64,000 bases of DNA, from the NCBI RefSeq assembly GCF_003334335.1, contig NZ_QOWQ01000004.1. One strand, given 5' to 3'. Under the pieces are notes generated by a model, which was not told where the DNA came from, did not search any database, and worked only from the letters and a program-made list of their open reading frames with translations. Below are positions 38,034 to 38,258 of the stretch, piece after piece. Every line of letters begins with the position of its first letter. The first letter of the stretch is position 1. The translations under genes were made by a program, and so were the position numbers. The stretch is from Escherichia coli (GTDB lineage: Bacteria; Pseudomonadota; Gammaproteobacteria; Enterobacterales; Enterobacteriaceae).

Positions 38034-38258
38034 GATGAAGCAAGGGGGTGCCCCATGCGTCAGTTTTATCAGCACTATTTTACCGCGACAGCGAAGTTGT
38101 GCTGGTTGCGTTGGTTAAGCGTCCCACAACGATTAACCATGCTTGAAGGACTGATGCAGTGGGATGACCGCAATTCTGAAAGTTGACTTGCCTGCATCAT
38201 GTGTGACTGAGTATTGGTGTAAAATCACCCGCCAGCAGATTATACCTGCTGGTTTTTT
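38034..38258 (+). ncRNA. sgrS: Dual-function small RNA SgrS (glucose-phosphate stress; base-pairs with ptsG mRNA)
   Basis: Begins GATGAAGCAAGGGGGTGCCCCATGCGTCAG and ends in hairpin cagcagattatacctgctgg plus T8; contains the sgrT ORF. Confidence 0.9.
38055..38186 (+). CDS. sgrT: Small protein SgrT (43 aa) encoded within SgrS
   Basis: Internal Met of ORF 37887..38186: MRQFYQHYFTATAKLCWLRWLSVPQRLTMLEGLMQWDDRNSES, with GGGGG Shine-Dalgarno upstream. Confidence 0.85.
   Translation: MRQFYQHYFTATAKLCWLRWLSVPQRLTMLEGLMQWDDRNSES

Follow-up and report, generated by a model that had tools for sequence, protein, structure and literature searches.

An sgrS locus identical to that of Escherichia coli K-12, and the distribution of its hairpin-bearing sgrT allele among E. 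coli genomes

The plus-strand segment 38034..38260 of the window (the whole 64,000-nt stretch of DNA that was analysed) is E. coli K-12 sgrS, the gene for an Hfq-dependent dual-function sRNA that carries sgrT; we give this assignment a probability of about 0.98. All 227 nt are identical to MG1655 sgrS (227/227), an annotated ncRNA gene (b4577). When every Rfam family was scanned, the SgrS covariance model RF00534 matched 38034..38260 on the plus strand with 228.8 bits (E 2.7e-64, gathering threshold 37) and over its full length, model positions 1-232 of 232. The original prediction, made from the sequence alone, had placed SgrS here and named an Rfam search as its decisive check; the search returned this full-length match. 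It had also read the sRNA 5' end from the sequence, and the G at 38034 is the start of b4577. Its range, 38034-38258, was accurate at the start and fell short at the end, as the annotated and Rfam ends lie 2 nt further on, at 38260, inside the T8. All the elements it described are present, and the locus is identical to annotated MG1655 sgrS/sgrT. The match to b4577/RF00534 extends to length, position and orientation with respect to sgrR and setA, with no difference, and nothing contradicts the identification. An exact copy of MG1655 NC_000913.3 75000..79500 (4.5 kb) begins at 35667, and at least 4.5 kb surrounding sgrS is thus MG1655 base for base, in the order thiB-sgrR-sgrS-sgrT-setA-leuD. 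Because this stretch matches exactly at 35667, its offset places the window at MG1655 39334..103333. The sgrS/sgrT pair here is known already and is ordinary annotated biology (b4577, b4662). Its experimental study dates from 2004-2007. Features of the locus are as follows.

36311..37966, minus strand: sgrR, transcriptional activator, 551 codons (ORF with ATG at 37966..37964; MG1655 b0069, 75644..77299)
37967..38033, no strand assigned: sgrR-sgrS intergenic control region, 67 bp (sequence)
38021..38026, plus strand: probable sgrS -10 hexamer AATAAT, 7 nt before the start site
38034..38260, plus strand: SgrS sRNA, 227 nt (RF00534, 228.8 bits; identity to b4577)
38036..38062, plus strand: 5' hairpin, SgrS nt 3-29, over the sgrT Shine-Dalgarno sequence and start codon (RNAfold; published mutagenesis)
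38055..38186, plus strand: sgrT coding sequence, 43 codons plus stop (translation; PF15894; MG1655 b4662)
38201..38220, plus strand: seed (base-pairing) region, SgrS nt 168-187 (best local ptsG duplex)
38231..38260, plus strand: intrinsic terminator, stem-loop 38231..38253 plus T8 38253..38260 (terminator scan; MFE structure)
38288..39466, plus strand: setA, sugar efflux transporter, with leuD next (ORF; annotation)

As predicted, sgrS is divergent from sgrR, and 67 bp separate the two genes, in the arrangement annotated in MG1655; the longest ORF form of sgrR reaches a TTG at 37987. The K-12 sgrS start site has been mapped experimentally (PMC2760817, PMC2760806), and the sgrS -10 and activation sequences are conserved between species (PMC2760817). 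Consistent with this, CAATAAT is kept at an equal distance from the conserved 5' end GATGAAGC in Escherichia, Citrobacter and Salmonella. No good -35 was found in the sequence upstream of the start site, which fits an activator-dependent promoter. A candidate from the consensus promoter scan, AAGACA-16-TATATT (37988..38015), probably does not drive sgrS, as the end of its -10 is 19 nt away from the mapped start site, which is too far. Elsewhere in the window, Rfam matches comprised a TPP riboswitch upstream of thiB (sroA region; 36178-36277, minus strand), the leucine operon leader (44240-44389, minus strand) and two tandem copies of the REP-derived naRNA4 with identical scores (27277-27342 and 27362-27427, minus strand).

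Published work describes how such a locus operates. SgrR senses sugar-phosphate stress and switches on sgrS; SgrS requires Hfq, prevents translation of ptsG and brings about decay by RNase E, and it also represses manXYZ, stabilises yigL mRNA and regulates other messages; SgrT binds PtsG and inhibits transport (PMC4021124, PMC12612679). Applied to this locus, accumulating sugar phosphates would cause SgrR to activate the divergently transcribed sgrS. The single-stranded 3' segment of SgrS, nt 168-187, would then pair with the ptsG ribosome-binding site, blocking translation and leading to RNase E decay, and the 5' part would act as mRNA for the 43-residue SgrT, which would bind and inhibit the PtsG glucose transporter. 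The K-12 allele would damp the SgrT function by means of a G for A in the Shine-Dalgarno sequence, which would complete a GGGG/CCCC hairpin hiding the ribosome-binding site. We computed the b4577 identity, Rfam and Pfam membership, ptsG complementarity, terminator, purifying selection on sgrT and hairpin stability; SgrR induction, Hfq and RNase E dependence, SgrT-PtsG binding and low SgrT output in K-12 are taken from the literature. RNAIII/hld, SR1/SR1P and AzuCR are likewise single transcripts that serve as both base-pairing regulator and small-protein mRNA (PMC12612679), with sequences unrelated to SgrS. SgrS is set apart from other dual-function sRNAs in that its ORF (5') and seed (3') occupy separate segments and act on the same pathway.

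Base pairing with ptsG was assessed by sliding 20-nt SgrS windows along MG1655 ptsG -40..+20. This local test replaced an RNAduplex calculation on the entire SgrS molecule and the ptsG leader, which was uninformative because it pairs everything (308 of 500 shuffles were as good). The best local duplex joined SgrS nt 168-187 to ptsG -29..-8, across the Shine-Dalgarno sequence, at -27.1 kcal/mol, a value equalled by 0/200 shuffled SgrS sequences and to be compared with a median of -7.8 over all SgrS windows. The motif agtattggtgt, at 38210..38220, forms the 3' half of this segment; its designation as the conserved base-pairing segment was borne out, in that the motif falls within the SgrS segment forming the most stable local duplex with the ptsG ribosome-binding site. 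The position of the best duplex agrees with the published SgrS-ptsG interaction, for which G176 and G178 of SgrS are required (PMC2760806). The seed is identical in the divergent O157-type allele. Under the same local test manX gave a best site at manX +19..+49 with SgrS nt 154-176, and 20 of 100 shuffles were as good.

Embedded in the 5' part of SgrS (nt 22-153) is sgrT, whose ATG lies at 38055 and whose stop ends at 38186. The peptide, MRQFYQHYFTATAKLCWLRWLSVPQRLTMLEGLMQWDDRNSES, matches Pfam PF15894 (SgrT) over residues 3-37 (E 3.5e-13); an NCBIfam scan of the same 43 residues returned no matching family. The 43-codon frame that had been proposed is thus MG1655 b4662, with an identical 43-residue peptide and no difference at the protein level. 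Its core, RQFY..YF.AT..WL..LS.PQRL.MLE.LMQW, is common to Citrobacter, Salmonella, Enterobacter and other genera.

Homologous loci were collected in one scan of species-representative genomes with a 20-base pattern of seed plus T-run, which yielded 54 loci, about 37 of them in Enterobacterales. The remaining loci, roughly 17/54, come from Bacteroidota, Clostridia, Nostoc and other unrelated groups and are chance matches such as a 20-base pattern is expected to give. Seed conservation within this set is by construction, as the cross-species loci were chosen by exact seed match; independent evidence for it comes from the Rfam consensus and the literature (PMC2760817). The Rfam SgrS model was found in 16 of 18 other enterobacterial loci tested. 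Most of these matches spanned 227-293 nt, and short ones of 119-167 nt occurred in Atlantibacter, Yokenella and a record labelled C. freundii. The alignment of sgrT across enterics, suggested as a check in the original prediction, recovered an SgrT-like frame in 30/38 enterobacterial segments. Entropy at the first, second and third codon positions, taken over 35 ungapped core codons, was 0.437, 0.437 and 0.725, and dN/dS against K-12 ranged from 0.12 to 0.38 between genera (about 30 enterobacterial species). These values show that sgrT carries a coding signature and is under purifying selection between genera.

The SgrS of Salmonella enterica, like that of most E. coli strains, shares the conserved 5' end GATGAAGC, sgrT, the seed CUGAGUAUUGGUGU and the terminator; in Salmonella it differs in lacking the K-12 5' hairpin; more SgrT is made there (PMC2760806). 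Salmonella (L020, L050) and Citrobacter spp. (L009, L019, L048) carry a 12-nt insert that forms a small hairpin (e.g. GGGCUAUGGCC) between the seed and the UAAAAUCACCC preceding the terminator. Five segments, from Atlantibacter together with the 'C. freundii' M-21 record (L038-L041) and from Yokenella (L034), keep the SgrS seed and terminator and have no recognisable sgrT frame. The three of these scanned with Rfam (L038, L041 and L034) gave matches of 119-167 nt only. The M-21 record and Atlantibacter subterranea are identical in their 3' part, so the label of the former may be wrong. These forms resemble the sgrT-less SgrS that has reportedly been described for Yersinia. Several non-Escherichia Enterobacteriaceae have a hok/sok-type sok antitoxin RNA (RF01794) within a few kb of sgrS, in the place that setA holds in K-12 (L047 1863-2013 and 3148-3298; L045 185-332; L012 6760-6911; L007 14536-14688).

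Within E. coli the locus was surveyed in 5,426 complete genomes, a set in which laboratory K-12 and B derivatives are over-represented. No match was obtained in 26/5426, and 3/5400 matches fell on records typed as plasmids. The K-12 arrangement sgrR-sgrS-setA-leuD was present at >=99% identity in 3240/5400 genomes. A second form, about 92% identical, accounted for 2158/5400; it has no setA, and leuD follows directly. The two forms were compared by aligning window 37900-38400 with an O157:H7 segment (L002 3001-3400). Similarity ends exactly at the SgrS terminator (window 38259). The differences are concentrated in the terminator loop, the spacer and the 3' end of sgrT, and the seed is unchanged. 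O157:H7 also has espY2 inserted between thiB and sgrR. Its sgrT reads AAGGAGGTGCCCC ATT, that is, a canonical Shine-Dalgarno sequence with a mutated start codon, which has been treated as a start-codon knockout (PMC2760817); RefSeq nevertheless records a CDS there, 'glucose uptake inhibitor SgrT' (L002 3156-3287), despite ATT as the first codon. O157:H7 SgrS therefore differs from that of K-12 in its start codon and in having no setA downstream.

The Shine-Dalgarno sequence of sgrT in the window is GGGGG (38044..38048), 6 nt before the ATG. The original prediction had called this a strong ribosome-binding site. That description has to be revised, as GGGGG is the K-12-type form of a site whose canonical sequence is GGAGG, and it is predicted to be occluded by a hairpin in which GGGG (38044..38047) pairs with CCCC (38051..38054). 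RNAfold on the same 30 nt gave a local hairpin energy of -12.4 kcal/mol for K-12 versus -6.7 and -7.3 for GGAGG variants, a gain in stability of about 5-6 kcal/mol for the K-12 GGGG/CCCC hairpin. Pairing with the anti-Shine-Dalgarno sequence was slightly better for GGAGG (-12.6) than for GGGGG (-11.7). A partition-function estimate of Shine-Dalgarno and AUG accessibility across 30 homologues was noisy and did not single out K-12, with a probability of being unpaired of 0.45 for K-12 against 0.47-0.58 for other Escherichia. Because accessibility did not separate the alleles, the case for occlusion of the ribosome-binding site in the K-12 allele is drawn from the local hairpin energy and from published mutagenesis, which together suggest it. 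In the latter work the K-12 stem-loop sequestered the ribosome-binding site and inhibited sgrT translation, C-to-T or C-to-A changes raised SgrT, and the occluding hairpin was found in 3/15 E. coli strains in 2009 (PMC2760806, PMC2760817).

The two alleles differ by a single G/A at window 38046. Of the 5400 complete E. coli genomes that have the locus, 1417 carry the K-12 81-mer (38010..38090) without change and 3302 (61%) carry it with GGAGG. The majority of E. coli strains have GGAGG or another unoccluded initiation region, in contrast to the K-12-type GGGGG here. GGAGG was also present in all other Escherichia species examined, and the other 29 sgrT-bearing species all lacked the repeat GGGGGTGCCCC.

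These observations bear on whether SgrS of the K-12 allele is still dual-function, or whether it is effectively a base-pairing sRNA only, with sgrT silenced, decaying and retained by ancestry. We regard such silencing as unlikely, while allowing it more weight than any other alternative. In its favour, the K-12-specific hairpin has its additional 5-6 kcal/mol of stability, native K-12 sgrS yields very little SgrT and K-12 may have lost the need for it (PMC2760806, PMC4021124), O157:H7 has ATT in place of ATG, and several genera keep the seed without sgrT. Against decay, the ORF is intact, its peptide is under purifying selection between genera (dN/dS 0.12-0.38), and in the 1417 genomes that carry the hairpin allele the 81-mer examined contains neither a stop nor a frameshift. 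SgrT is poorly translated from the native K-12 allele and functional when expressed (PMC2760806, PMC12612679), and overexpressed sgrS variants giving SgrT alone relieve glucose-phosphate stress, with SgrT binding PtsG (PMC12612679). We retain the reading of the locus as a dual-function sRNA gene. A more speculative proposal, to which we attach little credence, is that the GGGGG/CCCC hairpin, carried by roughly one in four complete E. coli genomes, is a maintained and conditionally opened sgrT switch and not a drifting loss. Such a switch might release sgrT only under some signal, for example temperature, Hfq remodelling or a state following target pairing. The authors of PMC2760806 left open the possibility of the hairpin as a conditional switch.

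SgrS ends in the terminator hairpin and T8 that had been read from the sequence, with the stem at 38231..38253 and the T8 running to 38260. The stem has 8 pairs, 5 of them G-C, and a 7-nt loop. Its sequence, GCCAGCAG/CTGCTGG, is nearly invariant across genera and the loop varies; one compensatory stem pair was seen, in Enterobacter chuandaensis. Because the stem is nearly invariant in 31 distinct 3' ends, covariation would appear neither to support nor to contradict it. The terminator and the preceding UAAAAUCACCC constitute the Hfq-binding module (PMC4021124).

The short distance to setA, which begins on the same strand 27 nt after the T8, raises the question of whether this segment serves chiefly as a 5' leader, part of a longer transcript covering sgrS and setA, with the terminator acting as an attenuator. 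A promoter scan found no consensus promoter in the sgrS-setA gap, and SgrR activates setA during stress, its induction being SgrR-dependent (PMC4021124). A primary leader function is nonetheless improbable. The terminator is strong, with its 8 pairs (5 G-C) followed by T8, it is kept in most other genera, and 2158/5400 E. coli genomes (about 40%) retain sgrS and its terminator without setA. A role as setA leader is in any case compatible with the sRNA, as it would add to the sRNA function and not replace it.

The ORF list for the window gives, in place of a separate 43-aa ORF, a 99-aa ORF from TTG that contains sgrT (37887..38186), because the frame stays open upstream. That the 99-aa ORF is the real gene, with sgrT merely its C-terminal part, can be rejected with near certainty even though the frame is open from TTG 37887 and also open upstream in other Escherichia species. 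Its TTG lies 147 nt ahead of the point, 38034, at which transcription has been mapped experimentally to begin, and the ORF overlaps the 5' end of sgrR in antisense. In Citrobacter, Salmonella and Enterobacter a stop interrupts the frame just 6-12 codons before the conserved MRQF, and conservation and the Pfam match set in only from residue 3 of the 43-aa form. The earlier concern that a 60-aa cutoff would miss sgrT was accordingly misplaced: a longest-ORF caller returns the spurious 99-aa ORF, so the sgrT region is not missed, and the risk is that a long ORF is called wrongly, not that the gene is overlooked.

As a finding, sgrS/sgrT here adds no new knowledge. The value of the locus is as a positive control, in which the ends of a dual-function sRNA were placed within 2 nt from raw sequence; it is also a case in which ORF callers give a small embedded gene a spurious 99-aa extension. 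The modest new information is the allele count for E. coli, in which the hairpin allele is carried by 1417/5400 complete genomes and the canonical GGAGG form by 3302.
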